DNA of 64,000 nucleotides from Peptococcia bacterium (GTDB lineage: Bacteria > Bacillota > Peptococcia > Peptococcales > SKKY01), in NCBI GenBank assembly GCA_965228015.1, contig OZ245787.1, positions 1,377,536 through 1,441,535 on the forward strand. The letters are read 5' to 3'. Below the pieces are notes generated by a model that saw only the letters and a list, made by a program, of their open reading frames with translations, had not been told where the DNA came from and did no database searches. Made by a program: the position numbers and the translations under genes. Positions 479-42,833 of this stretch are shown here, piece by piece. How positions within the stretch are numbered: position 1 is the stretch's first letter; every line of letters starts with the position of its first letter.

Positions 479-1606
479 TTGGTTGTTAATACTTCTGGAG
501 TTATTTCTCTGGGTGTTGGTGAGCCGGATTTTATGACTCCCTGGCATATTCGGGAGGCGTCTTTCTATTCTTTGGAGAAAGATTACACAACATATACAAG
601 TAATAAAGGACTAATTGAGTTAAGACGGGCAATTTCAAAATATCTGACAAAACATGATGTAGAATATAATCCTGAAGATGAGATTCTGGTTACTATTGGT
701 GTTAGCGAGGGTGTGGATTTGGTCCTACGGGTGCTGGTTAAGGCTGAGGATGAAATTTTGGTTCCCGATCCTTCTTATGTAAGTTATTCCCCATTAATTG
801 GTTTGGCTATCGGAGTCTCTGTTCCTTTGAAACCCAGTTGTGAAAATGCTTTTAAGATTACCGCTGATGAACTTGAGGCGGCAATTACGCCAAAAACTAA
901 GGCATTAATTTTGACTTTCCCAAATAATCCTACAGGGGCGATTTTGACTAAGGAAGAGCTGGAAAAGCTGGCTGAGGTTATTATTCATCACGATTTAATT
1001 GTTATTTCAGATGAAATTTATGCTGAACTTACTTATGATGGGGTTCATGCTTCTGTGACAAGTTTGCCGGGAATGCAGGAGCGAACAATTTTGCTTAACG
1101 GATTTTCCAAGGCTTATGCTATGACAGGATGGCGTGTTGGCTATGTCCGCGGACCGGAAAACGTTATTTCTATGATGAACCGCATCCACCAGTATAGCAT
1201 TCTTTGCACCCCGGTTATGGGACAGCTGGCTGTAGTTGAAGCCCTGGAGAATGGGAATAAGGAAATGAAGCAGATGGTAATGTCATATAATTATAGAAGA
1301 AACTCAATGGTTAACGGATTTAATAAGATAGGGCTTGAATGCAGCCTGCCCCAGGGGGCTTTCTATGCCTTCCCCTCGGCGAAGAATACTGGTTTGAGTT
1401 CCGATGAGTTTGCGGAAAGGCTGGTGCTGGCAGAAAAAGTTGCCGTAGTGCCAGGAACTGCTTTTGGGGAAATGGGGGAAGGCTACATTCGCTGCTGCTA
1501 CGCCGCATCACAAGCCGACATCAACGAAGCAGTCAAGCGAATGGACCGCTTTCTAACCCGCACAGGAGGGGACGCTTCCAAAATCAGCGCGTCATCCACA
1601 GGCTGA
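479..1606 (+). CDS. PLP-dependent aminotransferase class I/II; the natural GTG start at 402 appears separated by a frameshift
   Basis: Motifs SLGVGEPDF, FPNNPTG, SDEIY and GFSKAYAMTGWRVG (PLP lysine). In-frame PSKIRKFFD lies upstream of 479, but GTG402, which overlaps the Lrp stop, is in another frame. Confidence 0.88.
   Translation: MVVNTSGVISLGVGEPDFMTPWHIREASFYSLEKDYTTYTSNKGLIELRRAISKYLTKHDVEYNPEDEILVTIGVSEGVDLVLRVLVKAEDEILVPDPSYVSYSPLIGLAIGVSVPLKPSCENAFKITADELEAAITPKTKALILTFPNNPTGAILTKEELEKLAEVIIHHDLIVISDEIYAELTYDGVHASVTSLPGMQERTILLNGFSKAYAMTGWRVGYVRGPENVISMMNRIHQYSILCTPVMGQLAVVEALENGNKEMKQMVMSYNYRRNSMVNGFNKIGLECSLPQGAFYAFPSAKNTGLSSDEFAERLVLAEKVAVVPGTAFGEMGEGYIRCCYAASQADINEAVKRMDRFLTRTGGDASKISASSTG
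1563..1604 (+). repeat. Gene-end motif copy 1: CAGG-AGGGGACGCTT-N14-TCATCCACA-GGCT
   Basis: 1567-1604 matches the reverse complement of 9075-9112 at 36 of 38 nt. It lies inside the last codons of the aminotransferase. Confidence 0.8.
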
Positions 1607-1658
1607 ATAGAAATAAATTGAAATTAGACAGAAATAAACTAATAAAATGAATTGAATT

Positions 1659-1718
1659 AAAAAAAGTGCGAAGTCTGAGTTAGAATTAAAAAATCCACTC
1701 AGACTTCGCACTTTTTTT
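1659..1718. terminator. Bidirectional intrinsic terminator
   Basis: AAAAAAAGTGCGAAGTCTGAGT...ACTCAGACTTCGCACTTTTTTT: 22-bp perfect stem including A/T tails, between convergent genes. Confidence 0.85.
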
Positions 1719-1774
1719 GTTTATATTAATTTTATTTCAAATCTGTACTATATATTTACTTATCTCCCTGCTCC

Positions 1775-1802
1775 CCTGTGGATAAATTGCACTAAATAGA
1801 AC
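1775..1802 (-). repeat. Distal half of motif copy 2 with a perfect DnaA box (TTATCCACA, 1777-1785), split from its proximal half (4505-4519) by the IS3
   Basis: Removing IS3 1803-4504 and one 3-bp duplicate gives, on the minus strand, CAGGAGGGGATGCTT-N14-TTATCCACAGG, with the same spacing as copies 1 and 3. The N14 spacer differs in sequence. Confidence 0.6.
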
Positions 1803-2984
1803 TGGTCTGACCCCCAAAAATTACACAAAATTGGGACAGTAAGATATACTAATTTTGGGGGCTGATTTTAATGACAAAGAACTATTCCGATGAATTTAAA
1901 CTCTCTGTAATTAAGGAATATTACGAAAGCAATCTTAGGGTAAGAAAGATTACTGCAAAGTACAATTTATCTTCAAAAAATCTTGTTCTTAATTGGGAAA
2001 AACAATTAAAAGAAAAAGGACTTCTTCCAACAGAAGCTAAGAAAGATCCGGATAAGATAAAAATCAGATCAGATAAAATAGATTTTCCTGAGAAAACACA
2101 AAGAGAAATTGAATACGAAAAAGAAATAGAACATCTTTATGCTAAAATTGAATACTACGAACAATTAGAGCATTTACAGCCCTTTATTTCTAAAAAAACA
2201 AAAGTCAGGGAGCTAAAGTACAGAGCTATATTTGCTTTGGAATTTAAATATACAGTAAAATTTCTTTGCGAAATTGCTGGAGTAAAAAGAAAAGCCTATT
2301 GCAATTTCAGAGACAAACCAATAAAAAAAGAAGATCCCATTGAGAAAATAATTATTCAAATATATAACAAATCAAAAGGAATTTTTGGTTACAGAAGAAT
2401 AGGAAATGAGCTAAGAAATACGTTTAAAATAGTTGTTAATCATAAAAAGATTCAAAGAATAATGCAGGAAAACAATCTCAGATCCAGAATCAGAAGAAAA
2501 AAGAATAGGATTCAAGATGATAAACAATTCAAAGCCAATATATTAAACAGGGATTTTAAGGCAAGTCGCCCAGGAGAAAAAATAGCCACAGATATTACCT
2601 GTATTCCTTACAGAAACTCTAAGCTATATCTGTGTGTTGCCCTAGATCTGTTTAACAATAAACCGGTAAGCCGGGAATACAGTAAGAATCCTGACAGCAA
2701 GCTGACTGTAAAAACTATTGAAAAACTTTCAAAAAAGATAGATATTAAGAATACTGTTATCCATAGTGATCAAGGTGTTTAATACACAAGCAAAGAATAT
2801 TCCAGCTATTTAAAGTCTTTAGGAGCAGTTCAAAGTATGTCCAGAAGAGGAAATTGCTGGGATAATGCGAAGATTGAAAGTTTCTTTAGCCATTACAAAA
2901 CAGAAAGTATTAATCTCTACAAGAAAAGAATCAAAAGTTTTAAAGATATAAAAGAAATTACTGAAGATTACATTAAATTTTATA

Positions 2985-4372
2985 GGTTCTACAATAAATG
3001 TTGGGGTGGCAAAAACCATTCTGACATTTATTTGCGAAAAAATACAGAGCATTGGGTAAGTCTATATTAGAGAACACCCACTGTAATCTAAGGAGGAATT
3101 TACTTATGCTCTGTAATAACTATTATATTAAAAAATTAATTGGTTTTAAAGGGATAATTTTAGAACAATTAGAAACTTCTTCTGATTCAATGTCCTTTTC
3201 TTTTTCTCTGGAGATTAAAACTCACAATTACCCCAAATGCCATCAACAAACCAGTAAAGTTCATGATTACAGAATTCAAATGATAAAAGATATTTCCATC
3301 TCAGGGAAGAAAACCTACCTTTACTATAAAAAAAGAAGGTACGTTTGTAATCACTGCAATAAAAAATTCTACGAAAAAAATGATTTTCTCCCCCGCTATC
3401 AAAGAATGACCAGCAGGCTGATAAAATACATAATTACTCGAATGAAAAATGTTTACTCTGTATCTGATATTGCCAAAGAGAATAATATTTCACCATCAAC
3501 GGCTCTCAGGCTTTTTAGATTCATAAACTATTCCCTAACAAAATTGCCCGAAGTAATCTCTATTGATGAATTTAAAGGTAATGCCGGGGGCAAAAAAGTA
3601 CCAGTGCATATTAACTGATCCCCAAAACAAGAAGGTACTTGATATTCTTCACGGAAGAGAACAACACATTTTATCGGACTATTTCAGGAAATTCAATGAC
3701 AGGGATAAAGTAAAATACTTCATTATGGATATGTGGCAACCTTACAAGGATATTGCTGAAACATATTTTAAAAATGCAACTATCATTATCGATAAATTCC
3801 ATTTCATTAGGCAGGTCACTTGGGCATTTGAAAGAATTAGGAAAGATGAGCAAAAGAAATTTGCCAAGGAAAGGCGAAGATATTTCAAAAGAAGTCGCTC
3901 CCTTCTCTTAAAAAGAATGAAGTATTTAACTCCTGAAGAAATTGACCAGGTAAATGTTATGCTTGCTACTTCTGAGAAACTGCAAAAAGCTTATATGTTA
4001 AAAGAAAAATTTTATAACTTTGTTGACAGCAGTGATTTAGAAAGTGCAAAAAAGAATTTGAAAGCCTGGTATATGTTTGTTATGTCCTGTGAGCTTGAAG
4101 AATTCGATAAATGCTCCAGAACCATTTTCAACTGGCAGAAATATATTCTTAATTCATTTACTTGTGCTTATACTAACGGATATACAGAAGGAGTTAACAA
4201 CAAAATTAAGGTTTTAAAAAGAAATGCTTATGGTGTAAGAAATTTTTGGAGATTCAAAAACAGAATAATGCACGTAATGAACTAAAAACAATTTAAATAA
4301 GTACCGCATTTTTCAATGCGGTACTTATGGAATCTAATCTAATTGGGTTACCCCAACATTTGACAAAGAACC
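2985..4372 (+). mobile_element. ISL3-family IS, copy 1, with 8-bp target duplication ATTTTATA
   Basis: Ends GGTTCT...AGAACC with IR core AAATGTTGGGG. ATTTTATA at 2977-2984 and 4373-4380. Confidence 0.93.
3106..4285 (+). pseudogene. ISL3 transposase, +1 frameshift
   Basis: Zn-finger region, SIDEF, DMW and TNGYTEGVNNKIK motifs. A6 at 3592-3597 versus A5 in the intact copy at 19419-20597. Confidence 0.9.
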
Positions 4373-4496
4373 ATTTTATATAAATGACAGGACGCATAGA
4401 GCCTTGGAGGTGTCCCTCCAAGGCTCTATAAACAGATTTTTTCATTTAATTAATTTGGTGAAATTTACTGTCCCAGAAGTGTACCCTTTTTGGGGT

Positions 4497-5429
4497 TCAC
4501 ACCAAAGCATCCCCTCCTGCGCTGCTAACTCGATTGCGGCCTTCTTGTTTAGCTCTGTACAAGGCTTTGTCGGCCTTTTCTAATATTTCCTGAGGTCTTG
4601 AATCCATTTGTGGAGCCATTGTGGCAACTCCTATACTAATGGTTACAAATTTACTCACCTTTGAAGCTTCATGGGGTATTTTTAAATTCTCAACACCCTT
4701 GCGTAATTCTTCTGCAAGTTTCATAGCACCTTCATGATTTGTACCCGGAAGAGCACAGGCAAACTCCTCACCACCCCAACGGGCAACAAGATCTGCACCT
4801 CTCTTCAATAAGTTTTTAAGAGCATAAGCAACCATCTTAAGACACTCATCTCCCTCAAGATGTCCATAAGTATCGTTGTAAATTTTGAAAAAATCCAAGT
4901 CCAACATTAGCACAGACAATTTTTCTTCATATCTTCTGGCCCGGCTCCATTCAGCCTCTAAAATTTCATTAAACTTATTTTTATTAGGAATTTTAGTAAG
5001 TCCATCCAGCATACTATTTTCTTTAATTACATCCCTTAGCTTTTTTAATTCAATATGATTTTTAACCCGGGCTTTTAGCACAGGTATGCTGTAAGGTTTA
5101 GTTATATAGTCGATGGCGCCGATTTTAAGGCCTTTTTCTTCATCTGCTTCCTTACTTAAAGCAGTAACAAAAATTACTGGAATTTCTTTAGTTTCCGGCA
5201 AACTTTTTAAAACCTCAAGAACCTGGAATCCATTCATTTCTGGCATCATTATATCCAAAAGAATAAGATCGGGAACCGGAAGCTTTGTTGCCATTTCCAA
5301 GGCCTCCTCACCACTTGTAGCAACTCTTATTTGACATTCATCTTGCAAGGCAGTGCCAAGCACACGAATATTCATTAGTGTGTCATCTACAATTAGAATT
5401 AAAGGTTTTTCATTAATATTATTTCTCAT
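4497..5429 (-). CDS. PleD-like response regulator diguanylate cyclase (REC-GGDEF)
   Basis: REC motifs VDD, LDIMMP, DYITKP. DLDFFK, I-site RGAD and active site GGEEF. Probable ATG at 5429 overlaps the kinase stop. The stop codon now falls in the IS3 right end. Confidence 0.9.
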
Positions 5430-7190
5430 CAGCGTCCATCCTTTGTAACAATTTTTCAACTTGATTTCTTGCCCCAGGATAATTAAAGTTATCCAAATTT
5501 AACTTAATTTTCGAAATTTCCTCTTCAAGACCAGGACATACAGATGCTAATATTTCAATTTCTTCTATAAGGGTATCTGAAATGAAAGCATTTGAGTTAA
5601 CCATATCCTTTAAGATCTGCATTTTTTCCAGCAATTCCAGAGATACTTCTGCTCCCAGGTTTGTACAATATTTAAAAATCCCTTTCGTTTCTTTGAGTAT
5701 TTCTAAATTTTCCGGTTCGGCAATTTTTCTCAAGGGAAGCTTAATAATAAAAGCTGTTCCAACCAAGTCAATACTACTGTTTTCTACATGGATACTTCCA
5801 CCCATTAATTCAACCAATCCTTTTACTATTGCCAGACCAAGGCCTGCCCCTTTATGGGTTCTTATTGTTGAATCTTCAAGCTGGGTAAATCCTTGAAAAA
5901 TTTTGTTCTTTTTATCTTCAGGTATTCCTACCCCTGTATCAGATACTATTATCTGAACTAAATTATTCAAATTTTTTAGGGTAATTCGAATCTCTCCGAT
6001 AGATGTGTGTTTTACTGCATTCCCTGCAACATGAAGTAAAATTTGTTTTAATTTATCTTCATCCCCAAGATAAATATCTTTATATCCTTCTTTTATATCT
6101 ATCGTAAATTTTAGTTTTTTCTTTTGGATTTCCTCTCTATAATATGTTTCTATTTCTGAAAGAATTCTCTCAAAATTCACTTGTTTTTCTTCAAGGCTGA
6201 TTTTCCCAAGCTCTATGTCTGCAAAATCCAGAATTTCATTTATTACTCTTAGTAAGTCCCTGGCGGATTCTTGTATGTCATTAAAGTATCCAATAAGCTC
6301 ATCTTTATTGGAGCCTGTAAGTTCTTTTTTAATAATGTAGCTAAGACCAATTATTCCGTTCATCGGGGTGCGGATTTCATGGCTCATATTTGCCAGGAAC
6401 ATACTTTTTGTTAAATTTGCTGATTCTGCCGCTTCTTTTGCAGCTTTCAATTCTTCTTCTGTGTTAATTTTTTCTGTAATGTCCTGAGTTGAGCCTACAA
6501 GATATTTTATTTTTCCCATTTCTTCTATAGGGAAAAGCTTGACGTGCCAGGTTTTTTCCCTCCAGGGAGATCATATGTTTCAGTATATGAGAGATTATCT
6601 TTTTGCTTAAGGCATTTATGATAGTAGGAAGAGAGCACCGCTCCCAAATTCTCACCATATACTTGTTCAGGAGTTTTTCCAAGTATTTCATTAAGAGGAA
6701 CTCCTGTTTTCTCCTGATAAATTCTATTCACTCTAAGATGTAAGAAATCATAGGCACCTGTTATTTTATTATGCACTGGTTGTACAAGAAACATTGACTC
6801 TTCAGTGGCATTAAATACAATTTCATATTCCTTGAGGATAAGCTCATTTTCAATTGTATCAATAAATAAGGTCACAAATTTATTAAGACCTGTTTTAAAA
6901 ACAGAAACTCTAAAATATTTTCCCGTTTCTTTAACAAAAACTGTTTCTAGAAATGGTTTCCCTGTTTTGACAACTTCTCCATAATTTTTAATTAGATTTT
7001 TATCTGTACCCGGAAGCACTTGCAGAACAGATTTATTTTTAATTTCATTAAATAAAAGTCCGGTAAGCTCTTCGAATTTCTTATTTCCCTCGAGAAAAAT
7101 GTAATCCACAGGATTTCCGAACTCATCAAAGACCATCTCATGAAGAACATAAGCTTCTTGCAATTGATCAATAATATTATTTTTATCCAT
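5419..7190 (-). pseudogene. PAS-PAS histidine kinase split by a frameshift
   Basis: 7190-6525 holds two PAS-like folds and 6519-5419 holds [20 protein letters not shown] and GAGLGL. One A is missing in the run at about 6552-6557; restoring it gives [18 protein letters not shown]. Confidence 0.82.
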
Positions 7191-7225
7191 ATAATCATCC
7201 TAACGTTCTTAGCTATATATCCAAA

Positions 7226-8572
7226 TTATTCTGTATAAAAAGGATATTCATCAAAAGGAAATAATTCCTTGATCTCCACCCTAGTTCCCCCCGAAACAAC
7301 ATCAAATCCATCTTTTGAGATAGCTAAACCTTCAAAAAAAGCACCTTCAAAAGTGATTTTTCCATTTGGCGCAAAAAGTATTCCTGAAAGGCCACTCCCA
7401 CCAAGGCCTTTAATAGATATGTCGCCGGTTTTAGCAACAATGATTACATTGTTTGTTGTTGGTAAATATATATTTGAATCATAACTCTCTGAGTATATTT
7501 TTATGTTATCTGAGAGATTGGGATTCCCAGCAACATAACCATTAAGATCATACCAAAAATCATTTTTAAGTGAAGGCATTAAATAAGGTGCTGTTATTAC
7601 AGACGGAACCTGAGCTTGTTTAATGCATTTATCTAGAATAGATTGATCAAAGTGAGAAGGATATTTTATCTCCCCAGCATAATAAATTTTAGTATCCTCA
7701 GATAGAAAGGGTGTCCAACCCAGTTTAAGATCCCCACTTACATAAACATTACCATGAATTCTCGCGTCTTTTAACTTAAAATCTCCGTTAACAAAAATAT
7801 CTCCATATATATTTCTAGTTCCGCTCCATAAACCTAAACTCCCATTTACATGTATTTGACCCGGATTACTACTAAAGCCCAACTCATTACTTCCGTTATT
7901 AAGTTTGACATCTCCGCCGAAAAAAATATTTGATACATGAATGGATCCATTTGATGGCAAATCATTATTTTTTAATTCCGAAGAAATAATAACTGTAGCC
8001 CCATCTCCAACAATATCATCTCCCTTAAAGTAGAGGTTCGTTCCCATAATAAATACCTTATCTTCAATAAATATGGGTAATTTATTTTTCTTCACTTCCC
8101 ACTCCCAGCGGGCTATTTTTAATTCGTGAAGGTAAGGATCTCCTTTATCATCAGTACTTGTAATTTGTGCATTATACAAATTATTATTCCCCGGCTCTTT
8201 TTCAAGATCAATATCGACAATATCTTTAAAATCTATAACTTCAGTTCCTCTTTGCCTTGAAATGTAATACCTTCCCTGGTCATCTTGCAGTCTTTTATAC
8301 AATATCTCTTCTGTTGAATTCAGGTTAATTTTATATTCATAAGTTTCCGGAGGACCGCTTTCTACAACATTTTTGCAATTCCTCAAATCGTCTTTCAAAA
8401 AACTTTCCAAACTACGAATGTCATTTCTTTTTGCCGATTCTTTTATCTGCTGTGTCGTTATTTTTTGATTCATGAACAACATGGGGTAAGCGATGCTGCT
8501 TATTACTCCCAAAATTATTATTACAATCATCATTTCTACTAAAGTTCTGCCTTTGTTATTAAGTAAGTGCAA
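7226..8572 (-). CDS. Type IV pilin-like (PilW-type N-terminus) protein fused to a C-terminal beta-helix domain, paralog B
   Basis: KG-RTLVEMMIVIIILGVI class III signal. Repeats such as IYGDIFVNGDF and IHGNVYVSGDL. Shares FKIARW(E/R)W, WTP and APxG.I.GxxFxG motifs with paralog A. Confidence 0.72.
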   Translation of the reverse strand: MHLLNNKGRTLVEMMIVIIILGVISSIAYPMLFMNQKITTQQIKESAKRNDIRSLESFLKDDLRNCKNVVESGPPETYEYKINLNSTEEILYKRLQDDQGRYYISRQRGTEVIDFKDIVDIDLEKEPGNNNLYNAQITSTDDKGDPYLHELKIARWEWEVKKNKLPIFIEDKVFIMGTNLYFKGDDIVGDGATVIISSELKNNDLPSNGSIHVSNIFFGGDVKLNNGSNELGFSSNPGQIHVNGSLGLWSGTRNIYGDIFVNGDFKLKDARIHGNVYVSGDLKLGWTPFLSEDTKIYYAGEIKYPSHFDQSILDKCIKQAQVPSVITAPYLMPSLKNDFWYDLNGYVAGNPNLSDNIKIYSESYDSNIYLPTTNNVIIVAKTGDISIKGLGGSGLSGILFAPNGKITFEGAFFEGLAISKDGFDVVSGGTRVEIKELFPFDEYPFYTE

Positions 8573-8629
8573 GTCATACCACCCCTGAATATTTTGCTGA
8601 TAAAATTCCGATACCTTTTTTAAACACCC

Positions 8630-9046
8630 TCAACTGCTGGTTATGGTTACCTCTCCGTTAGCGGCTATTGTTGCAGATATTGTAACACTCTGTATTACTT
8701 TTGTCCCACCCAAAATTTCACCTGTAGAAGAAATTGAAGTTGCAGTAAGTTGTGTAATTGTATACCTGTAAGTCAGGGCTCCTCCTAGATTCCAATCCGC
8801 TTGAAGTGGTGGCGTTGATACCAGGGGATTTTCGTTTTCTATCAAAGACAGAGCGTGTTCTATTCCTGCCTGGGCAAGATAATTTGCCCTCTCTCGCTCC
8901 TCTGTTCCTAAATTCAGGCGAACTTCTGTATTTAAAGTAAGGAGCATGGTACTTGTTAGAGTAATGACCACTGCAACGACAATTACAACAAGAACAAGTG
9001 CGTAGCCTTTATTATTTTTTATCATAGCTTGCATCATTTTTTGCAT
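8630..9046 (-). CDS. PilX-like minor pilin (N-terminal domain only)
   Basis: KG-YALVLVVIVVAVVITL without Glu5, plus the PilX-type motif ANYLAQAGIEHA. Confidence 0.7.
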   Translation of the reverse strand: MQKMMQAMIKNNKGYALVLVVIVVAVVITLTSTMLLTLNTEVRLNLGTEERERANYLAQAGIEHALSLIENENPLVSTPPLQADWNLGGALTYRYTITQLTATSISSTGEILGGTKVIQSVTISATIAANGEVTITSS

Positions 9047-9074
9047 CTCTCCTTAAAACCTTCAGCTTGAACTT

Positions 9075-9112
9075 AGCCTGCGGATAACGCGCTGATTTTG
9101 GAAGCGTCCCCT
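9075..9112 (-). repeat. Gene-end motif copy 3: AGGGGACGCTT-N14-TTATCCGCA-GGCT
   Basis: 36/38 identical to 1567-1604. Overlaps the TAG stop of the 9111 gene. Confidence 0.8.
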
Positions 9113-10586
9113 AATCCGCGGGGAGCATTTCGTTGAGGAATGGGTACAGGTTTGCGTCTGGGATGTAGGTTTCTATGCCTTCGAAGGTTACTTCCATTCC
9201 TCCTGAGGACATGTCGGCTCCTTCTGATGCTATAACCAGACCTGTGAAACTTGCTCCTCCGATTGTTACATATCCGTATGGTGCATAGATTACTCCGCTA
9301 AGATTAAGCCCTCCTCTTGATATAGTTATATCTCCTGCTAAATTGACTACTATAACATTGCTGATTGTCCCACCAATTGACTGAGTGTAATTTCCTGAGG
9401 TTACATATACTTTGGCGCCATTTGATAAAGGACCATTTAGCACATACCCATTATCAGCATACCACTGGGCATCTCTTGGTACTGGTACTTCATATTCTGG
9501 AACTGATTTTTGTGCTACTGCTACTGTTGTGACCATCTGTTCAAAGTGAGTTAGTGTGTATGATGCGGGGTGAGTAATTATTCCAAAATAATATACCATT
9601 GAGCCCGTTGTGAAACTGGGTGTCCAATTTACAGTTACATTTCCATTTACGTACATGTTTCCCTCTAAGGTTCCGTCCTTTATATACAAGTTACCATTAA
9701 CATAGACATCACCTTCAACTAATCCATTGGAGAAATTAAAATCCCCTTGAACATATACGTTACCATATATTTTTCCTGAGCCGGACATATTCAAATCACC
9801 ATTTACATAAACGTCTCCGTAAATGTCTGCCGCACCTGCCAATGTAACATTTCCATCTACTACTATTTCTCCTGGTTCTGTTATTGAACCAAGACTTCTG
9901 TTCCCATTTATATCTATATCCCCTGTAATATATAAATTAGAAACTCTTACTTTTGCATTTCCGTTAAGGTCACTGCTAGTGAGACTTGAGTCCACATAAA
10001 TTGTAGCTCCATCACCAGTTACTGTACCCCCACCCATTGCAAACCCTGCGCCAATTACAAATAAGTCTTCTTCTTCAAGGAGCTCATAAATAGCCTGCTC
10101 TTCTTCAGCCATAATATGCCAACGCCAGCGGGCTATTTTAAATTCATATATACTTTCTGTTCCTGTTTCTTCCATAATATATAACTTTACCTGAGCTAAA
10201 TCTTCTGTATCTGCCAGGTCATATATTTCTGCATTTGTTATTTCCGGGAAATTAATGTCTTTGCCTTCAAATCTTCTAACCACATGGTAAGTCCCATCTT
10301 CACCTTGAGCCCGGGTATAGATAATAGACTTGTCCAGATGTTTAACTGTAGAACGAAATCCCACAGGCTCGCCGAGATCTTTAACTACGATATCATAAGA
10401 TTCCCGAATATCTTCTTTGAGAAAATTGGCAATTGCTCTGACTTCGTTTCTTTCAAGGGAATTGCCTAGCTCATCTGTCACCAATTTATTATTTAAAAAT
10501 AAAACGGAGTGGGCGATAGCTCCAATAACTCCTATAATCAAAATTACTATGAGCATTTCAATTAAAGTTGTTCCTTTTTCATTCAT
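9111..10586 (-). CDS. Type IV pilin-like (PilW-type N-terminus) protein fused to a longer beta-helix domain, paralog A
   Basis: MNEKG-TTLIEMLIVILIIGVIG from ATG 10586 with a GGGGTGAG RBS. Tandem 16-17 aa repeats G[DN]VYVNG[DN]L. Confidence 0.75.
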   Translation of the reverse strand: MNEKGTTLIEMLIVILIIGVIGAIAHSVLFLNNKLVTDELGNSLERNEVRAIANFLKEDIRESYDIVVKDLGEPVGFRSTVKHLDKSIIYTRAQGEDGTYHVVRRFEGKDINFPEITNAEIYDLADTEDLAQVKLYIMEETGTESIYEFKIARWRWHIMAEEEQAIYELLEEEDLFVIGAGFAMGGGTVTGDGATIYVDSSLTSSDLNGNAKVRVSNLYITGDIDINGNRSLGSITEPGEIVVDGNVTLAGAADIYGDVYVNGDLNMSGSGKIYGNVYVQGDFNFSNGLVEGDVYVNGNLYIKDGTLEGNMYVNGNVTVNWTPSFTTGSMVYYFGIITHPASYTLTHFEQMVTTVAVAQKSVPEYEVPVPRDAQWYADNGYVLNGPLSNGAKVYVTSGNYTQSIGGTISNVIVVNLAGDITISRGGLNLSGVIYAPYGYVTIGGASFTGLVIASEGADMSSGGMEVTFEGIETYIPDANLYPFLNEMLPAD

Positions 10587-15589: not shown

Positions 15590-17107
15590 TACTTGTATCT
15601 ACCTTCGTAAACCATGTTATAATATCTGTATCTAACAGCATATATCTATCAAAAAGCTCTTGTAATACAGCTTCTAGATCAAGGTTTGTAAACTCTTCAG
15701 GATAAAATAACTTTGCCATTTTTAAAGTTGGATAAAATGCATATATTGATCTGCTTGTTGAATGGGCAAATTCATAAACATTTCCATTTTTCACAGCTTG
15801 AAGATTTGACCATCTATTACGATTTAGAATATCAAAGCTTGGTTCTTTTTTCTCTCTTAGAATGTCAAGCCAACCATCATTTACACCACTTAAAATTACA
15901 AATTCAGGATTTTTCTCTAAAACATATTTCGGATCAAGGGTGTTGCTTGCTCCCCCAGACGCTGCAATATTTAAAAGAACTTCATCTGCAATATTTTTTC
16001 CTCCAGCCACTTTTACTGGAAGACCCCATCCACTCTTGCTAGTTGCTGTTGAATCAAATACTTGCGAGTAACCAGATTTTTCATAATAAACAGTAGGAAT
16101 GTTTTCTTTTTTATTTAGGATTTTAGATGCAATTAGTTTAAATTGGTCATCTATAAAAGCTGATGCTTCATTTGCTTTCTCTTCTTCTTGGAAAATTTTT
16201 CCAAGTATCTTCATTGTATCTGTTACAGATGTTTCAAGTTTTTTCCGGGGACATCTACTAAAATAATTTTAATTCCAGCACTTTCCAAAACATTTTCAAC
16301 TTCAAGAGCATATTTATGAGCTCCCATAGCTGAGTTTGCAACAAGAACTTCCGGTTGCATAGCTAGTGGCATTTCCAAATCGAAAGGAGCATTATGATCA
16401 GAAATCTGGCCAACATGTTCCATATAATTACCAACAACTGGTGTGTATAACTCTGCATACTTATTTAAACCATGACCGCCATCTTGCCCGGAGCCAACTA
16501 ACATGTTAAAAGCATCTTCACCTTTTAACGGGATAATATATTCAAAAACATCCATCGTACTAACTGCATAGGTTGATAAAGGCAACGGGATCTCTACTTC
16601 TCTACCTTTAGCATCAGTTATTATTACTGAGCTGGATTTTTCTGCTTTTTCTGGCATTTTATTACTATCTATTGAAGGAAGAGGATAATCTTCAGCCAGT
16701 CCAATATTTTCTTTAGACCAACCAAAATCAAGCAAATCTCCTCCAGCTTTTTCTATTGATGTGGCAACAGAATTTAATATCCCTGCCATTGTGATGGAAG
16801 CACCTGAAACACCATCTACATCAAGAGATTGCTTTTCGATAATTAACTCCGGCAGCTTTTCAATTGCTACAGTACCTACCCCATCTGTTTCTGAGTGATC
16901 ACCAATAATTACATCAACAATTTTTCCATCTTTATCTACCTTAGTTGTAACTTCAATTTTTCCATGATAACCATCAACAGTTTCTGTATATATACCTTCC
17001 TTAAGAGTTTTATCCTGCTTATCAGCACAACCTGCTAATACAAAAACAAGGGATAATGACAAAAATAACAGCAGCGCAACCTTACAAAAATTTCTAGTCT
17101 TTTTCAA
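15579..17107 (-). pseudogene. Lipoprotein: FMN-binding (flavinylation) domain fused to a Fe-siderophore/cobalamin-type solute-binding domain, single frameshift
   Basis: Lipobox LAGC. GYHGKIEV..SET..DVDGVSGASIT matches the FMN_bind [ST]GA[ST] motif (16796-16807). The rest is a type III SBP. One A is missing in the run at 16239-16244; restoring it gives about 509 aa. Confidence 0.82.
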
Positions 17108-17136
17108 TTCAATCTTCTCCTTTTTTATTCAGTTTT

Positions 17137-17983
17137 TTATACTTTCCAAATGATGTGTCCCGTAACCGCAACACTCTCTTCGTTAATCATTCCATCTTCA
17201 GCAATTTTTTCTAAATATCTTTTGATTTCATTTTTATCTTCATTACTAAGCTGATTTTTAATCGAAAGCTTATTTGTATAGCTTTCAAAAACTTCATTTA
17301 AAGGCTGTGAACTTTTCCAATTTCTTTCGTTATAACTTACCTCTGGATAATAGCCCATATTCCAGAGGATATTAAAAGCATAATAAATTTTATCTTCGAG
17401 AATCCCTGTTTTGCCTTCCTCTTTATTAATCAGATTAAATAATGCATCTTCAACCTTGGATTCCCGTTTGACCCAAGCACTTAAGTAGCAATAACCAGAG
17501 GAAGCATCACACATTTTTTTAATGTTTCATAATTATGTATCGCTGGAGACATAGATGCGAAAACCAAGTCAAACTTTTTATCCCATTGTTTTTCTTCAAG
17601 ATTAATATCTACCCAGTTAACTTTCATTGGATGAACATTTTCCAGACCAAGTTTTGTGGCTTTATCTTGCAAAATTTTAAGCATATTTTCAGAAATATCC
17701 ATGGAAAATACTTCTTGGCGCTTTTCCGCCATTGGAATTGAGTGGGTTCCTGGACCGCAGCCAATATCTAAAAACCTTGGCTTTGTGGTGCAAAATGTTT
17801 CTTTCCGTCATAGATTCAATTAAAATGCTTGTTTTTTCTCCTTGTCCTTTAAATTTTGATTAAAAGAGTCCGCGCGTCCATTCCAAAACTCTTCACATGC
17901 TGTAAAATCCATATCACAGTAGCTCCAAAGATTTTTCCAATATTCCAGTTTATTTTTGTCTTCTTATTTCTTTAATAAATCAC
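17137..17983 (-). pseudogene. Class I SAM-dependent methyltransferase, fragmented
   Basis: Motif I LDIGCGPGTHSIPMA, DISENML and FDLVFASMSPAI occur across several frames. The start is approximate. Confidence 0.8.
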
Positions 17984-18064: not shown

Positions 18065-18144
18065 TCCTATTTTTAAGTCTTCATGATTAAGCATCCAAAA
18101 CCGATGCTTTAATGACTAATAATTATCCCATTATTGTCATAGAT

Positions 18145-18320
18145 TTCCTCTAAGGCAGGTCTCCTGGCTCACGGGTCATTCTCCCCTCAACCTTCCCAGA
18201 ACAATTAATGTTCCAGTGGTATACTGAGGTTCGTCTTCGCATACAGTGGTGGGTCCGCGTCGTTTTTAACGATCTCCCTTATTCTCCTCAAATAATTTTG
18301 AGGCACCTTAAATTCCGAAA
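18145..18320 (-). ncRNA. Cobalamin (B12) riboswitch
   Basis: The minus strand has AAGGTGC..AATAAGGGA..CGGACCCACCACTGT..CCACTG..GGGAAGG..GAGCCAGGAGACCTGCC, i.e. the conserved core elements and B12 box. Confidence 0.92.
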
Positions 18321-18469
18321 AATATTAAGTTGTATTTTGGTGTTGAAGTTATTCTAGCACAACTTTTTTTAATGCAAATTATTTGCAAATTCCAAAAATA
18401 TTTTAAGTTTTAACACTTTGCCTTGAGGGTATAATTAAATAAGCACAAGATAAGAAGGAGGAAAGCATT

Positions 18470-19323: not shown

Positions 19324-19331
19324 TTAAAACT

Positions 19332-20718
19332 GGTTCTTTGTCAAATGTTGGGGTAACTCAATTAGATTAGATTCCATGAGTACCGCATTGAAAAATGCGG
19401 TACTTTTTTAAATTGTTTTTAGTTTATTACGTGCATTATTCTGTTTTTGAATCTCCAAAAATTTCTTACACCATAAGCATTTCTTTTTAAAACCTTAATT
19501 TTGTTATTAACTCCTTCTGTATATCCGTTAGTATAAGTACAAGTAAATGAATTAAGAATATATTTCTGCCAGTTGAAAATGGTTCTGGAGCATTTATCGA
19601 ATTCTTCAAACTCACAGGACATAACAAACATATACCAGGCTTTCAAATTCTTTTTTGCACTTTCTAAATCACTGCTGTCAACAAAGTTATAAAATTTTTC
19701 TTTTAACATATAAGCTTTTTGCAGTTTCTCAGAAGTAGCAAGCATAACGTTTACCTGGTCAATTTCTTCAGGAGTTAAATACTTCATTCTTTTTAAGAGA
19801 AGGGAGCGACTTCTTTTGAAATATCTTCGCCTTTCCTTGGCAAATTTCTTTTGCTCATCTTTCCTAATTCTTTCAAATGCCCAAGTGACCTGCCTAATGA
19901 AATGGAATTTATCGATAATGATAGTTGCATTTTTAAAATATGTTTCAATAATATCCTTGTAAGGTTGCCACATATCCATAATGAAGTATTTTACTTTATC
20001 CCTGTCATTGAATTTCCTGAAATAGTCCGATAAAATGTGTTGTTCTCTTCCGTGAAGAATATCAAGTACCTTCTTGTTTTGGGGATCAGTTAATATGCAC
20101 TGGTACTTTTTGCCCCCGGCATTACCTTTAAATTCATCAATAGAGATTGCTTCGGGCAATTTTGTTAGGGAATAGTTTATGAATCTAAAAAGCCTGAGAG
20201 CCGTTGATGGTGAAATATTATTCTCTTTGGCAATATCAGATACAGAGTAAACATTTTTCATTCGAGTAATTATGTATTTTATCAGCCTGCTGGTCATTCT
20301 TTGATAGCGGGGGAGAAAATCATTTTTTTCGTAGAATTTTTTATTGCAGTGATTACAAACGTACCTTCTTTTTTTATAGTAAAGGTAGGTTTTCTTCCCT
20401 GAGATGGAAATATCTTTTATCATTTGAATTCTGTAATCATGAACTTTATTGGTTTGTTGATGGCATTTGGGGTAATTGTGAGTTTTAATCTCCAGAGAAA
20501 AAGAAAAGGACATTGAATCAGAAGAAGTTTCTAATTGTTCTAAAATTATCCCTTTAAAACCAATTAATTTTTTAATATAATAGTTATTATAGAGCATAAG
20601 TAAATTCCTCCTTAGATTACAGTGGGTGTTCTCTAATATGGATTTACCCAATGCTCTGTATTTTTTCGCAAATAAATGTCAGAATGGTTTTTACCACCCC
20701 AACATTTATTGTAGAACT
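19332..20718 (-). mobile_element. ISL3-family IS, copy 2, no target duplication
   Basis: Near-identical to 2985-4372 in reverse. The terminal base is changed (AGAACT) and the flanks TTAAAACT / TTTATTTA differ. Confidence 0.92.
19419..20597 (-). CDS. ISL3 transposase, apparently intact (392 aa from ATG 20597)
   Basis: Continuous frame with an AAGGAGG RBS and SIDEF, DMW, TNGYTEG motifs. Confidence 0.9.
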   Translation of the reverse strand: MLYNNYYIKKLIGFKGIILEQLETSSDSMSFSFSLEIKTHNYPKCHQQTNKVHDYRIQMIKDISISGKKTYLYYKKRRYVCNHCNKKFYEKNDFLPRYQRMTSRLIKYIITRMKNVYSVSDIAKENNISPSTALRLFRFINYSLTKLPEAISIDEFKGNAGGKKYQCILTDPQNKKVLDILHGREQHILSDYFRKFNDRDKVKYFIMDMWQPYKDIIETYFKNATIIIDKFHFIRQVTWAFERIRKDEQKKFAKERRRYFKRSRSLLLKRMKYLTPEEIDQVNVMLATSEKLQKAYMLKEKFYNFVDSSDLESAKKNLKAWYMFVMSCEFEEFDKCSRTIFNWQKYILNSFTCTYTNGYTEGVNNKIKVLKRNAYGVRNFWRFKNRIMHVIN

Positions 20719-30108: not shown

Positions 30109-31658
30109 ATCGTGTCAATTAATTATGGGTTTTAAAAGAATAAAAAAACTCCTTGTATGTATTACGTGCTAAATCGCACTCGCTATCCTTTTAAATAATT
30201 CTCTTTTCCAAGTTCTCTTACCAGTTAAAACTACTGGCACATTGCCGAATTTCTCATCTGATATTAGGTTCGTAGCTTTTTTATAACACGGCTTTCTAAT
30301 TTTATGATTCTTGTTTCTGTTTTTCTTGCTTCTTTCTTTTACTAAATCATATACATTACCTGAATTAGCCTTAAAAGCCCTCAGACGTGACATTTGATCA
30401 ACACCTTCTCTGCACCAGCTTAGAGGCCTTGAACTTAATCTTGCAGATAATATATGACTAATATGGCCTTCTGTGCTACAGCCTATATAATCCGGGTCAT
30501 ATTGATTCATTATACCTTCCCAATTATTTAACACATAACTTCTAGCATCTTTTATTGCTTCTATTTTTTGTTTCTGATTCTGTTTCTTCAATTATTGCTT
30601 TGAATAAATCTTTTACGAAATCTTTCCTTTTCGTATTTATGTAATACCACATCATTTGGTGTGTGCCTTTCATATGAGCAGTTGCCTTCTTTATATATTT
30701 CGACAAATAGTATCTATCTAAAACATAGATACTATCTTTAATCCATTCTTTGCCTTGTTTTATCCAGTTGGCTCCATCTCCTGATAAATATATCTTTTCA
30801 ATAGTTTCTTCTTCATAGTTGCTATCAATATAATCAGCTACTTCAAGCCATAAATCAGCACTATCTTGGTAGAGACCACTAAAGTATCTGGGATTTATTA
30901 ATTCATATCTATCTTTACTTACCTTTCACTTACCTTCGTGAACATAAATTAATCTAGGTTCGGCACATGTTCCTCTTTGAAGTGAAACATGATCTTCATC
31001 AACTTCGATGTACAAAATCTTAGCTTGAGAATCAGTTTTTTCACTGGTGCTGCATGATTAGAAATATCTTTAAGCTTTCTAATAGAATTCATTACTGTTT
31101 GACCAGTAAGATATACATTCTTCGATATTTTTTCGCTACTTTTTCTGTATGGTGTCTCTATTGCTTCTTCTATTAACATTGATTCTAGCAATATATCCAT
31201 TCTGTCATTTGCTTCAATACCAACAGCTTCATCAGATAAGTATTTATATTCACCGGTAATTTTATGAACATAATACGTTCTTTTATAGGTTACTTCACCA
31301 AATATCGTCGCCAAACTTTTCTTCGACTTTGTTTCCTTTATTTTCCAGTCTCTTTTTCTTGCACAATCTTTTTTAACTAAAATATCTACAGTTTCAAGTA
31401 CTTTTTCTGTAATTGCAACCCCAACTTCATCCAGCATTTTTTTGGTTTTTAAAATGAATTCAGATATATTATTTCCCTCAATTAAAGTTGTTTCCATATT
31501 TTCTGCTATTTCTTTACCGATTTTAGTTGCAATTTCATGTATAATATTATTCATTAGAGTTTCTCCTTTTTTGCGATTTGGTTTAGCGATTTAATTGTAA
31601 CATAAGGAGTTGCTCTAATATTTTTTTGTTTTTTTACCCATAATTATTTTACACTAAC
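30109..31658 (-). mobile_element. ISLre2-family IS, left copy
   Basis: IRs GTGTAAAATAATTATGGGT / GTGTCAATTAATTATGGGT. Near-identical inverted copy at 42834-44381. Confidence 0.88.
30169..31554 (-). pseudogene. ISLre2 transposase with two frameshifts
   Basis: YIEADEDHV, GDGANWIK, YHLSKY and EGHISH motifs in three frames, with breaks at two A6 runs. Confidence 0.85.
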
Positions 31659-31674
31659 AAAAATTTTTTATCAC

Positions 31675-31807: not shown

Positions 31808-33157
31808 ATGATAAAATCACAATTAAATGAAATATGGTCAGAAACCTTAAAAGTTATTCAAAATAAAATTAACAGGCCATCTTTTGATACCTGGTTTAAC
31901 CAAACAGAATTAGTTGCTTATTATGATGAAAATTTTATTATTAAAACCCCAAACAATATTGTAAAAGACTGGTTAAACAATAATTATATAGAGGTAATTA
32001 ATGAATCCTTTCAGGAAATTTTAAAAAGGAAGGTAATAACAAAATTTGTTGTCTCTAATGATCTTGAATTATTACCTATTGAAAATAATCAAACTGATAA
32101 TATCAGAAAAGAATCTATAGAAGAAAAAATAGCAAAATCAAATATTAATCCAAGGTATAATTTTGATAATTTTGTTGTTGGTAACAGTAATAAATTTACT
32201 CACGCAGCATGTATGTCTGTAGCAGAGTCTCTCTTTTTAAGATACAATCCATTATTTATTTACGGAGGCGTTGGCCTGGGTAAAACACATCTTATGCAGG
32301 CAATCGGAAATTATGTAATGATGAATTCAAATAAAAAGGTGCTTTATGTTTCTTCTGAAAAATTTACTAATGAATTAATTAATGGCATCCGGGATGATCG
32401 TACTGAAGCTTTTAGAAATAAATATAGAAATATTGACTTCTTATTAATTGATGATATTCAATTTTTAGCAAAAAAGGAAAGAACACAAGAAGAATTTTTC
32501 CATACTTTTAATGCTCTTTATGAAGCAAATAAACAAATTATTATTTCAAGTGATCGTCCTCCAAAAGAAATTCCAACACTAGAAGATCGTTTAAGAACAA
32601 GGTTTGAATGGGGTCTTATAACAGATATTCAATCACCTGATTATGAAACTAGAGTTGCGATTTTAAGAAAAAAAGCAAAAATGGAAAATTTTGACATACC
32701 AGATGAAATTATGTCATACATAGCCGAAAAAATTGATTCTAATATCAGAGAATTAGAAGGAGCTTTAATAAGAGTTATTGCTTACTCATCTTTAAGTGGA
32801 AAAAATATTGATTTAGAACTTGCAAAAAAAGCTTTAAAAGAAATCATCACAGATAAAAAACCAGTAATAATAACTCCGGATATAATTCAGGAAGTAGTAT
32901 CAGAAAATTTTAATATCCGAGTTGAAGATCTTAAATCTAAGAAAAGAAATAAAGATATAGTTTACCCAAGACAGATATCAATGTATTTATGCAGGACTCT
33001 TACTGATTTATCTCTTCCAAAAATTGGAGAGTATTTTGGTGGAAGGGATCATACTACAGTTATTCACTCATATGAAAAAATTAGTTCAGAAATAATAAAA
33101 AATCCATCCCTTTCAAATACAATAAATTCATTAACTGAAAAAATTAAAAAAGTATAA
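31808..33157 (+). CDS. dnaA: Chromosomal replication initiator DnaA
   Basis: YNPLFIYGGVGLGKTHL, LLIDDIQF, RLRTRFEWG and GGRDHTTVIH motifs. Confidence 0.99.
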   Translation: MIKSQLNEIWSETLKVIQNKINRPSFDTWFNQTELVAYYDENFIIKTPNNIVKDWLNNNYIEVINESFQEILKRKVITKFVVSNDLELLPIENNQTDNIRKESIEEKIAKSNINPRYNFDNFVVGNSNKFTHAACMSVAESLFLRYNPLFIYGGVGLGKTHLMQAIGNYVMMNSNKKVLYVSSEKFTNELINGIRDDRTEAFRNKYRNIDFLLIDDIQFLAKKERTQEEFFHTFNALYEANKQIIISSDRPPKEIPTLEDRLRTRFEWGLITDIQSPDYETRVAILRKKAKMENFDIPDEIMSYIAEKIDSNIRELEGALIRVIAYSSLSGKNIDLELAKKALKEIITDKKPVIITPDIIQEVVSENFNIRVEDLKSKKRNKDIVYPRQISMYLCRTLTDLSLPKIGEYFGGRDHTTVIHSYEKISSEIIKNPSLSNTINSLTEKIKKV

Positions 33158-40078: not shown

Positions 40079-40133
40079 AATCTTTCTTGATATAAAATAG
40101 TTATTATTGTAATATATTTGAAATAGAATATTA

Positions 40134-40357
40134 AAAAGTAATGATCAGGAAGTTTTAAATTTCTTTGTTGCAGAGAGCTGATGGAAGGTGAAAATCAGTA
40201 CAAGTATTTAAAATTCCGCCTGTAAACTGAGCATGATGAATATTTCCGTTGGTTACGTTATAACCGTCAAGTGGAATAGCGACAATGTTGTTATTTAATT
40301 TGGGTGGCAACGCGGGTAGACAGAACCCGTCCCATATTTTGGGACGGGTTTTTTTAT
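40134..40357 (+). ncRNA. Serine-specific T-box riboswitch with terminator
   Basis: AGAGAG/GGTGAAA stem I motifs, TCC (Ser) specifier at 40215-40217, T-box AATTTGGGTGGCAACGCGG (UGGC pairs with G73 of tRNA-Ser) and terminator AACCCGTCCC..GGGACGGGTT-T tract. Confidence 0.9.
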
Positions 40358-42803: not shown

Positions 42804-42833
42804 ATTACAAAATAAATTACAAAAAATATTGCA

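Follow-up and report, generated by a model that had tools for sequence, protein, structure and literature searches.

What makes three unrelated genes of one chromosome give up their usual T-ending codons shortly before they end? The question is raised by a stretch of 64,000 nucleotides from a Peptococcia bacterium of the SKKY01 lineage (GenBank assembly GCA_965228015.1, contig OZ245787.1, positions 1,377,536 to 1,441,535), in the following called the window, which is a low-GC (about 33%) chromosome segment with the replication origin. In genes for an aminotransferase, a cyclase and a type IV pilin-like protein, a tract of A- and C-ending codons lies directly 5' of a copy of a short repeat that is probably of the REP/REPIN type (REP, repetitive extragenic palindrome). 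A preliminary description of this DNA regarded these tracts as the possible footprint of a local mutagenesis, in which the complementary strand is repeatedly single-stranded next to the repeat. The tracts and the repeat were followed through the window and through related contigs, about 200 kb in all, from uncultured Clostridia of one clade, in which copies were found by exact-pattern scans and by look-ups of orthologous loci; single contigs are cited by handles such as L013. The footprint is real and tied to the repeat, it is polar in that only the 5' side is affected, its strand specificity follows the orientation of the repeat, and it is missing in repeat-free orthologs. The open reading frames (ORFs), repeat copies and tracts concerned are the following.

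479-1606, + strand: class I/II aminotransferase ORF, Pfam aminotransferase domain to residue 354 of 375
1481..1567, + strand: T/G-depleted tract 1, the aminotransferase's last 29 codons before the repeat head; third positions C 16, A 8-9, G 2, T 2
1568..1602, + strand: copy 1 of the probable REP-type repeat, GGGGACGCTTCCAAAATCAGCGCGTCATCCACAGG; exact 25-mer matches, one arm of a 48-nt inverted pair
4497-5459, - strand: response-regulator/GGDEF cyclase ORF
4515..4595, - strand: tract 3 (weaker), the last ~27 cyclase codons; A/C-ending 20/25, C-ending 8/25
9077..9111, - strand: copy 2 of the probable REP-type repeat, GGGGACGCTTCCAAAATCAGCGCGTTATCCGCAGG; orthologous copies in L002, L013 and L010
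9111-10631, - strand: type IV pilin-like ORF with N-terminal methylation motif
9114..9233, - strand: T/G-depleted tract 2, the pilin-like ORF's last 40 codons; T at third positions 1/40, versus 160/471 upstream

The codon shift in the window

The counts of A- or C-ending codons given in the preliminary description could be reproduced, with 24 of 28 at 1481-1564 (+), 23 of 25 at 9120-9194 (-) and 15 of 19 at 4518-4574 (-), and so could the count of 2 in the first 28 codons of the aminotransferase ORF. As the third-position background of the 61 window ORFs is A.376, C.101, G.143 and T.380, the signal is mainly one of C for T. When windows of 25 codons were slid along these ORFs, the two of the 16,879 windows with most C at third positions (C3; A3, G3 and T3 are used likewise) were 1475-1549 and 9120-9194, with 14/25 each and 11 in the next, and both lie directly 5' of the two intact repeat copies. 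The highest count of A/C-ending codons, 23/25, falls in the pilin tract, and the cyclase window stands with the values listed above in the tail of the distribution. A comparison of the last 28 codons with the middle of each gene gives the same picture: the C3 difference (dC3) is +0.32 for the aminotransferase and +0.34 for the pilin-like ORF, whereas the 59 other window genes have a mean of +0.008 (sd 0.071, maximum 0.18), and this maximum belongs to the cyclase, whose repeat copy is degenerate and split by an insertion sequence (IS). The corresponding changes of C/(C+T) are +0.59, +0.62 and, for the cyclase as third of the 61 genes, +0.41, compared with a mean of 0.02 (sd 0.14). The same bias at motif-free 3' ends, which would have spoken against a local footprint, is thus not seen among the 59 other genes.

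The AsnC-family and aminotransferase genes (1-1480, +) lie on the strand opposite to the rest of the replichore's genes, and third positions in this region are unusually rich in G and T (A3 0.21, G3 0.26), with a positive local GC skew. Against this background, the reversal in the last 29 codons of the aminotransferase is even sharper. A weaker A/C shift had also been reported from mid-parB, upstream of parS, but this example does not hold, as the A/C-rich windows at 52606-52770 are 370-530 nt away from the parS pair at 53137-53193, reach a C count of at most 8/25 and belong to a gene that is A-rich over its whole length, which makes them not comparable with the repeat tracts. The two parS sites (53137-53152 and 53178-53193) are situated at the very end of parB.

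Composition and extent of the tracts

Pooling of the tracts (441 codons from 9 genes) and comparison with the gene bodies gave these third-position frequencies.

T3: tract 0.03, body 0.32
C3: tract 0.39, body 0.18
A3: tract 0.47, body 0.34
G3: tract 0.12, body 0.16

T is missing from almost all sites at which the protein permits another base, and G is reduced less completely. About 40% of the G3 left in the tracts consists of obligatory ATG and TGG codons, as estimated from Met and Trp frequencies. At 2-fold pyrimidine sites, C rises to 0.75 and T falls to 0.12 (0.30 and 0.63 in bodies), at 2-fold purine sites A stands at 0.86 and G at 0.14 (0.67 and 0.33), and at 4-fold sites the tracts have A.47, C.42, G.05 and T.06 compared with.39,.18,.14 and.29. 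The purine fraction of the 4-fold sites is unaltered (0.52 in tracts, 0.53 in bodies), and in the aggregate the gain of C is about the loss of T and the gain of A about the loss of G. The shift is not confined to the wobble base, since leucine codons also move from TTR to CTN (TTR 5/37 in tracts, 84/216 in bodies). ATT is down to 2/43, with both ATC and the rare ATA up, and GTT is absent (0/22), being mostly replaced by GTA. At codon positions 1 and 2, T is slightly reduced (-0.046 +/- 0.02 per codon, vs +0.014); at constrained positions, T stays at 0.29 in the tracts, and G at positions 1 and 2 stays at about 0.34 and 0.17.

In the 30 codons beside the repeat head T3 is 0.04-0.07, and beyond 70 codons it is back to 0.28. 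Change-point analysis gives tract lengths of 24-76 codons (about 70-230 nt), and in single genes the edge can be sharp. The footprint of roughly 100 nt that the preliminary description had assumed is therefore not a fixed length, and a fixed footprint as of a Rho hexamer or of three ribosomes was rejected because of this spread. Single tracts contain T-ending codons in 1/40, 0/30, 1/63, 1/65 and 1/76 positions, and this in ordinary housekeeping and regulatory genes.

Orthologs and unrelated genes with and without the repeat

The aminotransferase gene can be compared between relatives that carry the repeat and relatives that do not. C3 of its last 29 codons is 0.48-0.52 in the window, L003 and L013 and 0.31-0.39 in L010, all with the repeat, while repeat-free orthologs have 0.07 (L017), 0.14 (L016) and 0.28 (L018); tract 1 as such is common to L003 and L013, weaker in L010 and absent from L016 and L017. 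Identical codons in orthologs without the repeat, which the preliminary description had named as the mark of donor composition, are accordingly not what these genes show (0.07-0.28 versus 0.48-0.52). In L014, the aminotransferase has a variant repeat without the DnaA box (GGGGACGCAACC...) and is shifted nevertheless (C3 0.48, T3 0.10), so that this box is not required. The pilin ortholog of L014, which has no repeat, shows C3 0.17 and T3 0.38. The cyclase ortholog of L013 ends at an intact repeat and has T3 0/30, and the weaker tract 3 of the window carries derived C-to-T differences relative to L013 and L003.

The same shift is found 5' of co-oriented copies in comF, hisB (in two lineages), prs, prmC, an ORF resembling SAM synthetase and an ORF for a membrane protein. 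In a pooled test of 155 genes from seven loci, in which the included orthologs are not independent, the 14 genes from 8 families whose stop codon lies at most 12 nt before the head, or whose ORF reads into the repeat, have a dT3 of -0.236 (sd 0.075) and a dC3 of +0.231, and all 8 families shift in the same direction. The 135 repeat-free genes have -0.026 (sd 0.10) and -0.005, respectively (Mann-Whitney p = 1e-8). A general 3'-end effect was rejected because of the small dT3 of -0.03 in these repeat-free genes. The finding is thus general within the clade and statistically strong. The tracts were also considered as a part of the repeat itself, which was rejected, as they are unrelated between genes and encode the native C-termini (a pilin paralog shares the C-terminal motif).

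Orientation, integrity and contact of the repeat

The shift is confined to the 5' flank of co-oriented copies. No consistent change is seen in genes whose start lies just past an inverted copy (hisZ, glmU, S4, pth in four lineages and a gene of 131 aa in a flagellar operon), and an ORF that abuts the tail of an antisense copy has no T loss (n=1). A symmetric effect on both outer flanks of repeat doublets was considered and rejected: the 5' ends of pth (L004, L020) and ctsR (L008) are G/T-rich, but hisZ, glmU and S4 show nothing, the 131-aa gene shifts the opposite way, and the aminotransferase 5' end is equally G/T-rich with no repeat nearby. Integrity matters as well, since a truncated copy with only the head (cyclase of L010) is accompanied by no shift and the IS-split copy of the window by a weaker one.

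Contact between gene and repeat is best seen with prs. Where a doublet follows straight after the stop codon (L020), T3 is 0/28, and 1/63 over the whole tract; where a terminator hairpin stands between stop and doublet (L019, L023), the last 28 codons have T3 0.36 and 0.29 and are unshifted. HU genes with a terminator between ORF and repeat are likewise unshifted. The gene ndk and the gene of a transposase described below, whose stop codons are 26-28 nt off (a hairpin arm being closer), are intermediate with dT3 of -0.13 and -0.21, and stops 41-57 nt from the head go with values from +0.11 to -0.14. The shift appears to depend on an intact repeat and on transcription into it; the need for a co-oriented repeat and for an ORF that reaches it is as directly observed as the association, its polarity and strand specificity, and the composition of the tracts.

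In the window, the aminotransferase ORF reads through copy 1 and has its stop codon at 1604-1606, and copy 2 begins at the last base of the TAG stop of the pilin-like ORF, inside an operon whose next gene follows 64 nt on. The two full copies form an inverted pair of 48 nt (1557-1604 / 9075-9122). Copy 3 at the cyclase end is degenerate, and its two parts are separated by an IS3-family element, as listed here with the surrounding features.

1641..1736, no strand assigned: hairpin then T-run (an inverted repeat), intrinsic-terminator-like, downstream of copy 1
1775..1787, - strand: distal remnant of repeat copy 3, reverse complement ATTTATCCACAGG, by comparison with the intact cyclase-side copy in L003 and L013
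1788..4501, + strand: IS3-family element with transposase ORFs 1871-2782 and 2837-3070 (Pfam HTH_Tnp_1, HTH_21, rve), ends read from the sequence
2986-4377: nested ISL3 element inside the IS3 element (DDE_Tnp_ISL3), 98-99% identical to an inverted copy at 19327-20717
4502..4514, - strand: proximal remnant of repeat copy 3, GGGGATGCTTTGG, at the cyclase ORF 3' end; full orthologous copies in L003 and L013

In L003, L013 and L010, where no IS is present, the convergent aminotransferase and cyclase genes face each other across the terminator-like hairpin, and both have a repeat copy of their own. In the window, the present stop codon of the cyclase ORF is supplied by the IS3 insertion.

The repeat family and its candidate transposase

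Altogether, 46 distinct copies were found, nearly all of them intergenic or at ORF ends. A copy consists of the head GGGGACGYTTCC, a variable arm and the part (C/G)TTATCCACAGG, which holds a 9-mer DnaA box, TTATCCACA. This box is perfect in almost every copy (for example L013, 4272-4309), and each window copy (1592-1600, 9079-9087) has one mismatch. The arm can pair either with a local left arm or with a second, inverted copy; local left arms with 7 or more complementary bases occur in 13/46 copies (the 99th percentile of shuffled sequences is 7), and five different arm sequences covary. Tail-to-tail doublets occur at L013 4249/4324, L005 217/292, L019 739/813, 9903/9977 and 17926/18001, L020 4024/4099, and L024 13839/13914 and 20150/20229, each with two convergent TTATCCACA boxes at a spacing of 9-10 nt; if a single strand folded, these boxes would make a duplex DnaA box within the hairpin. 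Copies stand at ORF ends, in operon interiors, in 5' leaders and once in frame within tilS, and orthologous sites differ between lineages in whether the repeat is present. The tilS copy (L024 13839-13914) is a doublet in frame that is apparently translated through, and the sequence upstream is C-rich for about 10 codons only. A more distant relative (L016 4890-4929 and 7141-7180) has the head in another arrangement, a perfect palindrome of 46 nt (GTTGGGGACGTTTCCCTCTGGTATACCAGAGGGAAACGTCCCCAAC), suggesting the head as the most ancient of the family's conserved parts.

In the relative L024, a transposase gene of the Y1/HUH type adjoins ndk (16953-17723, -; 256 aa, Pfam Y1_Tnp). Among the NCBIfam models, NF047646, "REP-associated tyrosine transposase" (RAYT), matches it best, with 73.5 bits at a cut-off of 80 and an E value of 1.6e-20, and both an HUH (HFHFV) and a Tyr (YVHNNP) motif can be recognised. 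The gene is accompanied by repeat copies at 16758(+) and 16929(-), only on its 3' side. The transposase has about 100 extra C-terminal residues with a faint match to sigma-70 region 4 (HTH). No RAYT gene is present in the 64-kb window.

Because of the palindromic repeat, the inverted doublets, the variable presence and the RAYT-like gene beside copies in one relative, the repeat is probably a REP/REPIN-type family with a RAYT-like partner that does not belong to the GTAG class. Like known REPs, the copies are short imperfect palindromes mostly just downstream of ORFs (PMC3733652, PMC3479197), they form inverted doublets from which a long hairpin is possible, their arms covary between lineages and their presence at orthologous sites varies, and a Y1/HUH gene with a RAYT model as best match stands beside them in a relative. 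They differ from known REPs in that there is no GTAG tag, the conserved parts being a G-rich head (GGGGACGY) and the DnaA-box 9-mer, and in that the RAYT match is below the NCBI cut-off. The host is also different, an uncultured low-GC Clostridia lineage, whereas a published REP survey gives GTAG and CGTC REPs in other phyla only. The head contains GACG, the reverse complement of CGTC, but in the loop or at the outer end and not as the foot tag of a stem of 8-9 bp, so that kinship to the CGTC REPs is doubtful. No Rfam family matches the repeat, neither at the gathering threshold over the window nor at E <= 10 around 1400-1800, where the hits fall on the terminator hairpin, far below their thresholds. 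The repeat pattern was unmatched in viral contigs, and a phage origin was rejected on this ground. Inspection by eye for DnaA-trio-like arrays and for a promoter in the reverse-complemented repeat gave nothing convincing.

L010, L011 and L012 are near-identical and differ at adjacent positions in the arm of the pilin-side repeat (L010 15646-15647; ATT / ACT / GTT). The contig L002 (JAQUUL010000040.1) is filed as a metagenome-assembled genome of "Candidatus Paceibacterota" and is, along the ~260 nt compared, very similar to the pilin region of this Clostridia lineage, which points to a bin that is probably contaminated.

Origin of the tracts

As cause of the tracts, we rank first a repeat-linked and transcription-dependent process of strand-asymmetric mutation or repair, a view that we hold weakly, with a probability of roughly 0.38. 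In such a process, a strand-asymmetric substitution bias would arise from processing of the repeat on the non-template strand while the gene is transcribed into the repeat. The repeat would fold, or would be bound or nicked by the RAYT-like HUH enzyme or another repeat-binding factor, and the sense strand 5' of it would be peeled back or resected over a variable distance. The complementary strand would then stay single-stranded or be resynthesised with errors, with a loss of A and C that amounts to the loss of T and G on the sense strand, and purifying selection on the protein would leave synonymous changes only. The mutational cause, all of these molecular steps and the involvement of the RAYT-like enzyme are what we infer. 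That a REP/REPIN element imposes, via a RAYT-like HUH nuclease or another factor, a T/G-erasing tract of 70-230 nt on the ORFs that run into it is held more tentatively still.

Several observations favour a mutation-like process. The move of leucine from TTR to CTN, the rise of ATA, the use of GTA for GTT and the small T loss at positions 1 and 2 indicate an effect at the level of nucleotides rather than of decoding. The near-complete loss of T in ordinary genes and the need for an intact, correctly oriented repeat point the same way, and so do the constant purine fraction and the aggregate balance, in which C replaces T and A replaces G. A candidate nickase for single-stranded DNA (ssDNA) exists in the RAYT-like protein, and nicking had indeed been among the causes considered in the preliminary description; the precedent is TnpA-REP of E. 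coli, which nicks ssDNA at CT dinucleotides and, guided by 2 nt, does so well away from the REP hairpin and over a flexible distance (PMC3479197). The sole single-nucleotide difference in 7,142 nt between L010 and L011 also counts for this process, as it lies in the repeat arm and is T-to-C on the repeat strand. The direction, in which the complementary strand loses A and C, has its precedent in vertebrate mitochondrial DNA, whose genes have A/C-rich, G/T-poor third positions from ssDNA exposure of the complementary strand (PMC3269015). The tracts share with it the direction of change, the strongest effect at third positions and a gradation, which in mitochondria follows exposure (PMC3269015), but the mitochondrial asymmetry is genome-wide and tied to replication origins, while the tracts cover 70-230 nt beside a repeat, lose T more than G (the reverse is the case there), are not made by pure transitions and require an ORF that runs into the repeat. 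A test on this pattern found the aggregate changes transition-like, with T3 climbing from 0.04 to 0.28 with distance, but site by site T-to-A and A-to-C changes too, and divergence that is not raised.

Other observations weigh against a mutational origin. Synonymous divergence between close strains is 0.133 in tracts (29/218) and likewise 0.133 in bodies (230/1730), which gives no sign of current hypermutation, as a strong ongoing bias would result in ~1.5-2.5x more; hypermutation in the sense of excess divergence was rejected. The larger loss of T than of G is the opposite of what spontaneous deamination of ssDNA would lead to. At 4-fold sites with T in unshifted orthologs, the tracts have C in 15/25 and A in 10/25, and A-to-C is doubled, so that there is no clean transition signature. 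A DUF192 gene is unshifted with a 57-nt plain spacer before an intact doublet (L019 739), and the spacer keeps 26% T; a very AT-rich ORF in L001 with an intact copy 17 nt past its stop is unshifted too. Both cases fit the rule that the ORF must reach the repeat better than they fit a pure DNA or transcription process. The part of the RAYT-like enzyme in the tracts is, moreover, conjecture, and we know of no description of a process of this kind in bacteria. From the proposal of a repeatedly exposed complementary strand, the net loss of T and G on the repeat strand stands, while the spectrum, the divergence and the spacer case do not fit it. A nick, unwinding or fork block that acts independently of transcription does not predict the absent shift where a terminator (three cases) or the 57-nt plain spacer (one case) intervenes, given that other tracts extend over 190-230 nt.

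As a second cause, nearly as likely as the first, the tracts may instead reflect selection on mRNA or translation. In its general form, U and G would be disfavoured in the RNA just 5' of the repeat; more specifically, the repeat RNA or a bound factor would hinder the terminating ribosome, a queue would form and wobble-read codons would be selected against. All NNU and many NNG codons are wobble-read. Liang, Rudd and Deutscher (2015) reportedly found that an E. coli REP within ~15 nt of the stop codon leads to ribosome stalling, mRNA cleavage and tmRNA tagging. The geometry that decides the effect is the same, a stop at, inside or within about 10 nt of the repeat, although that work is not known to describe any recoding of upstream codons. 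The effect tracks the distance from stop to repeat (at 0-9 nt or inside, dT3 -0.24 and 14/14 genes negative), with a threshold that resembles the leading edge of a ribosome and the reported 15-nt rule. Such selection accounts for the acceptance of both A and C, the purge of T beyond that of G and the tolerance of ATA, it fits the unshifted spacer and L001 cases and the lack of excess divergence, and the queue length could explain the variable tract length. However, the leucine TTR-to-CTN changes and the small T loss at positions 1 and 2 are not decoding effects, and the near-total purge of ~25-70 synonymous sites in weakly expressed regulators needs unusually strong selection per site. Divergence is not lowered either, although a strong constraint predicts about half the body rate (29 changes vs 14.5 expected, P ~4e-4), and an RNA hairpin should work both ways, yet the antisense-abutting ORF (n=1) keeps its T. 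In csp, a highly expressed gene of the window, TTT and GGT are the codons in use, which indicates that C-ending codons are not translationally preferred in this genome; classical translational optimisation was rejected because of this usage, the rise of ATA and GTA and the changed first base of leucine codons. Selection for unstructured RNA was rejected as well, as predicted folding, compared with unshifted orthologs, goes in opposite directions, being stronger in the tract of the aminotransferase and weaker in that of prs, and hence is not consistently weaker. Selection on RNA of another kind, which we regard as quite improbable, would make the tract a rut site and the repeat a pause site, with C-rich, G-poor, unstructured RNA of ~80 nt selected for Rho loading. 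A rut site is defined by an excess of C over G along 78 nt with a pausing hairpin behind it (PMC6407284), and this arrangement is resembled here: in the 90 nt before the head, C/G amounts to 1.2-3.2, and it is above 1 in all tracts, in coding strands that normally have G > C, and the shift is missing where an intrinsic terminator already precedes the repeat. The main signal, however, is the loss of U relative to A (4-fold T 0.06 vs A 0.47), which is no rut property, G at positions 1 and 2 is retained as noted above, the tracts vary from 70 to 230 nt within translated ORFs and more structure is predicted for the one of the aminotransferase than for its unshifted orthologs. The aminotransferase and the cyclase also have an intrinsic terminator just past the repeat, and the copy at the pilin-like ORF is internal to an operon.

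At the level of DNA, selection could act against the repeat's own HUH nuclease, which we consider improbable. A RAYT on the folded repeat would cut T-containing ssDNA targets, and these would be purged by selection or error-prone repair where the protein allows. The flexible distance at which TnpA-REP cuts CT (PMC3479197) and the RAYT-like gene beside repeat copies in L024 speak for it, and it would cover the strand specificity, the need for an intact repeat, the variable reach and the near-complete purge. Yet no dinucleotide stands out beyond what the loss of T3 itself yields, so that a specific nuclease target dinucleotide was rejected: all NT at positions 2-3 are lost whatever base precedes, CT and TC are undepleted (0.91, 1.16) and leucine CTN is up. 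Targets persist in the constrained-position T of 0.29, T-rich spacers and terminator T-runs stand directly beside some copies, and the depletion of G is unaccounted for. Very improbable in our view is an import of the repeat with ~100-200 nt of flank by recombination from a relative with other codon usage. The baseline T3 does differ between relatives (0.19-0.26 in L005, L008, L009 and L020 vs 0.33-0.41 in the window), but a body T3 near 0.03 is found in no sampled genome, the tracts are extreme relative to the gene that carries them in all lineages, also in T-poor ones, their sequences are orthologous and have diverged at the same pace as the remaining gene, and G-ending codons are not enriched as they would be from a GC-richer donor. 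The tracts also recall the target of a diversity-generating retroelement (VR-IMH-hairpin), with a polar region of ~100-130 nt at the ORF 3' end that is followed by GC-rich sequence and a hairpin, a variable 5' boundary and nucleotide-specific change. Such a target was rejected, as the tracts are unrelated between genes and thus without template repeat, A is enriched rather than mutated (A3 0.47 vs 0.34) and the changes are synonymous; no reverse transcriptase was found among the window ORFs scanned, which were a part of all.

Further features of the window

The gene dnaA lies at 31808-33157, close to the minimum of the cumulative GC skew at ~31-32 kb. An inverted repeat of 1,526 nt with 99% identity (30144-31669 / 42823-44348) brackets the origin region dnaA-dnaN-recF-gyrB-gyrA, and recombination between its arms would invert the origin segment. 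Each arm holds a pair of ORFs with matches to the two ends of the UPF0236 profile (PF06782), which are possibly fragments of one gene. A PAS/histidine-kinase gene (5419-7190, -) is present as two ORFs, 6525-7190 and 5419-6519, while the L013 ortholog is a single ORF of 590 aa, so that the window strain probably has a frameshift or nonsense pseudogene. A T-box leader is located at 40132-40337 (+) and a cobalamin riboswitch at 18137-18325 (-).

Meaning of the tracts

REPs are among the commonest bacterial repeats, and their effects on neighbouring genes are debated. The tracts touch two known kinds of phenomena, compositional asymmetry and REP effects on neighbour genes; they resemble the mitochondrial asymmetry in direction and the retroelement target in geometry, and are neither. 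The preliminary description knew of no account of such a footprint, and literature searches on REP/REPIN flanks and on strand-asymmetric synonymous change gave no such tracts. There is a fair chance that the tract reflects a new mechanism.

If the recoding of the last 25-75 codons is mutational, an element or its transposase rewrites host DNA locally and strand-specifically; mutation bias would then have a source not recognised before, and the tracts would keep a legible trace of ssDNA exposure or repair. Such a local, element-driven mutational asymmetry is of a kind not known to have been described in bacteria and would be a small-scale version of the mitochondrial strand asymmetry, anchored at a repeat. 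If it is selective, ribosome or RNA events at stops that abut a REP must be costly enough for a near-complete synonymous recoding, which would be the strongest local codon selection known to us. Either way, the tracts caution against taking local codon anomalies for horizontal transfer, and their pattern offers a means to tell, from sequence alone, which repeat copies are or once were active and how they are oriented.

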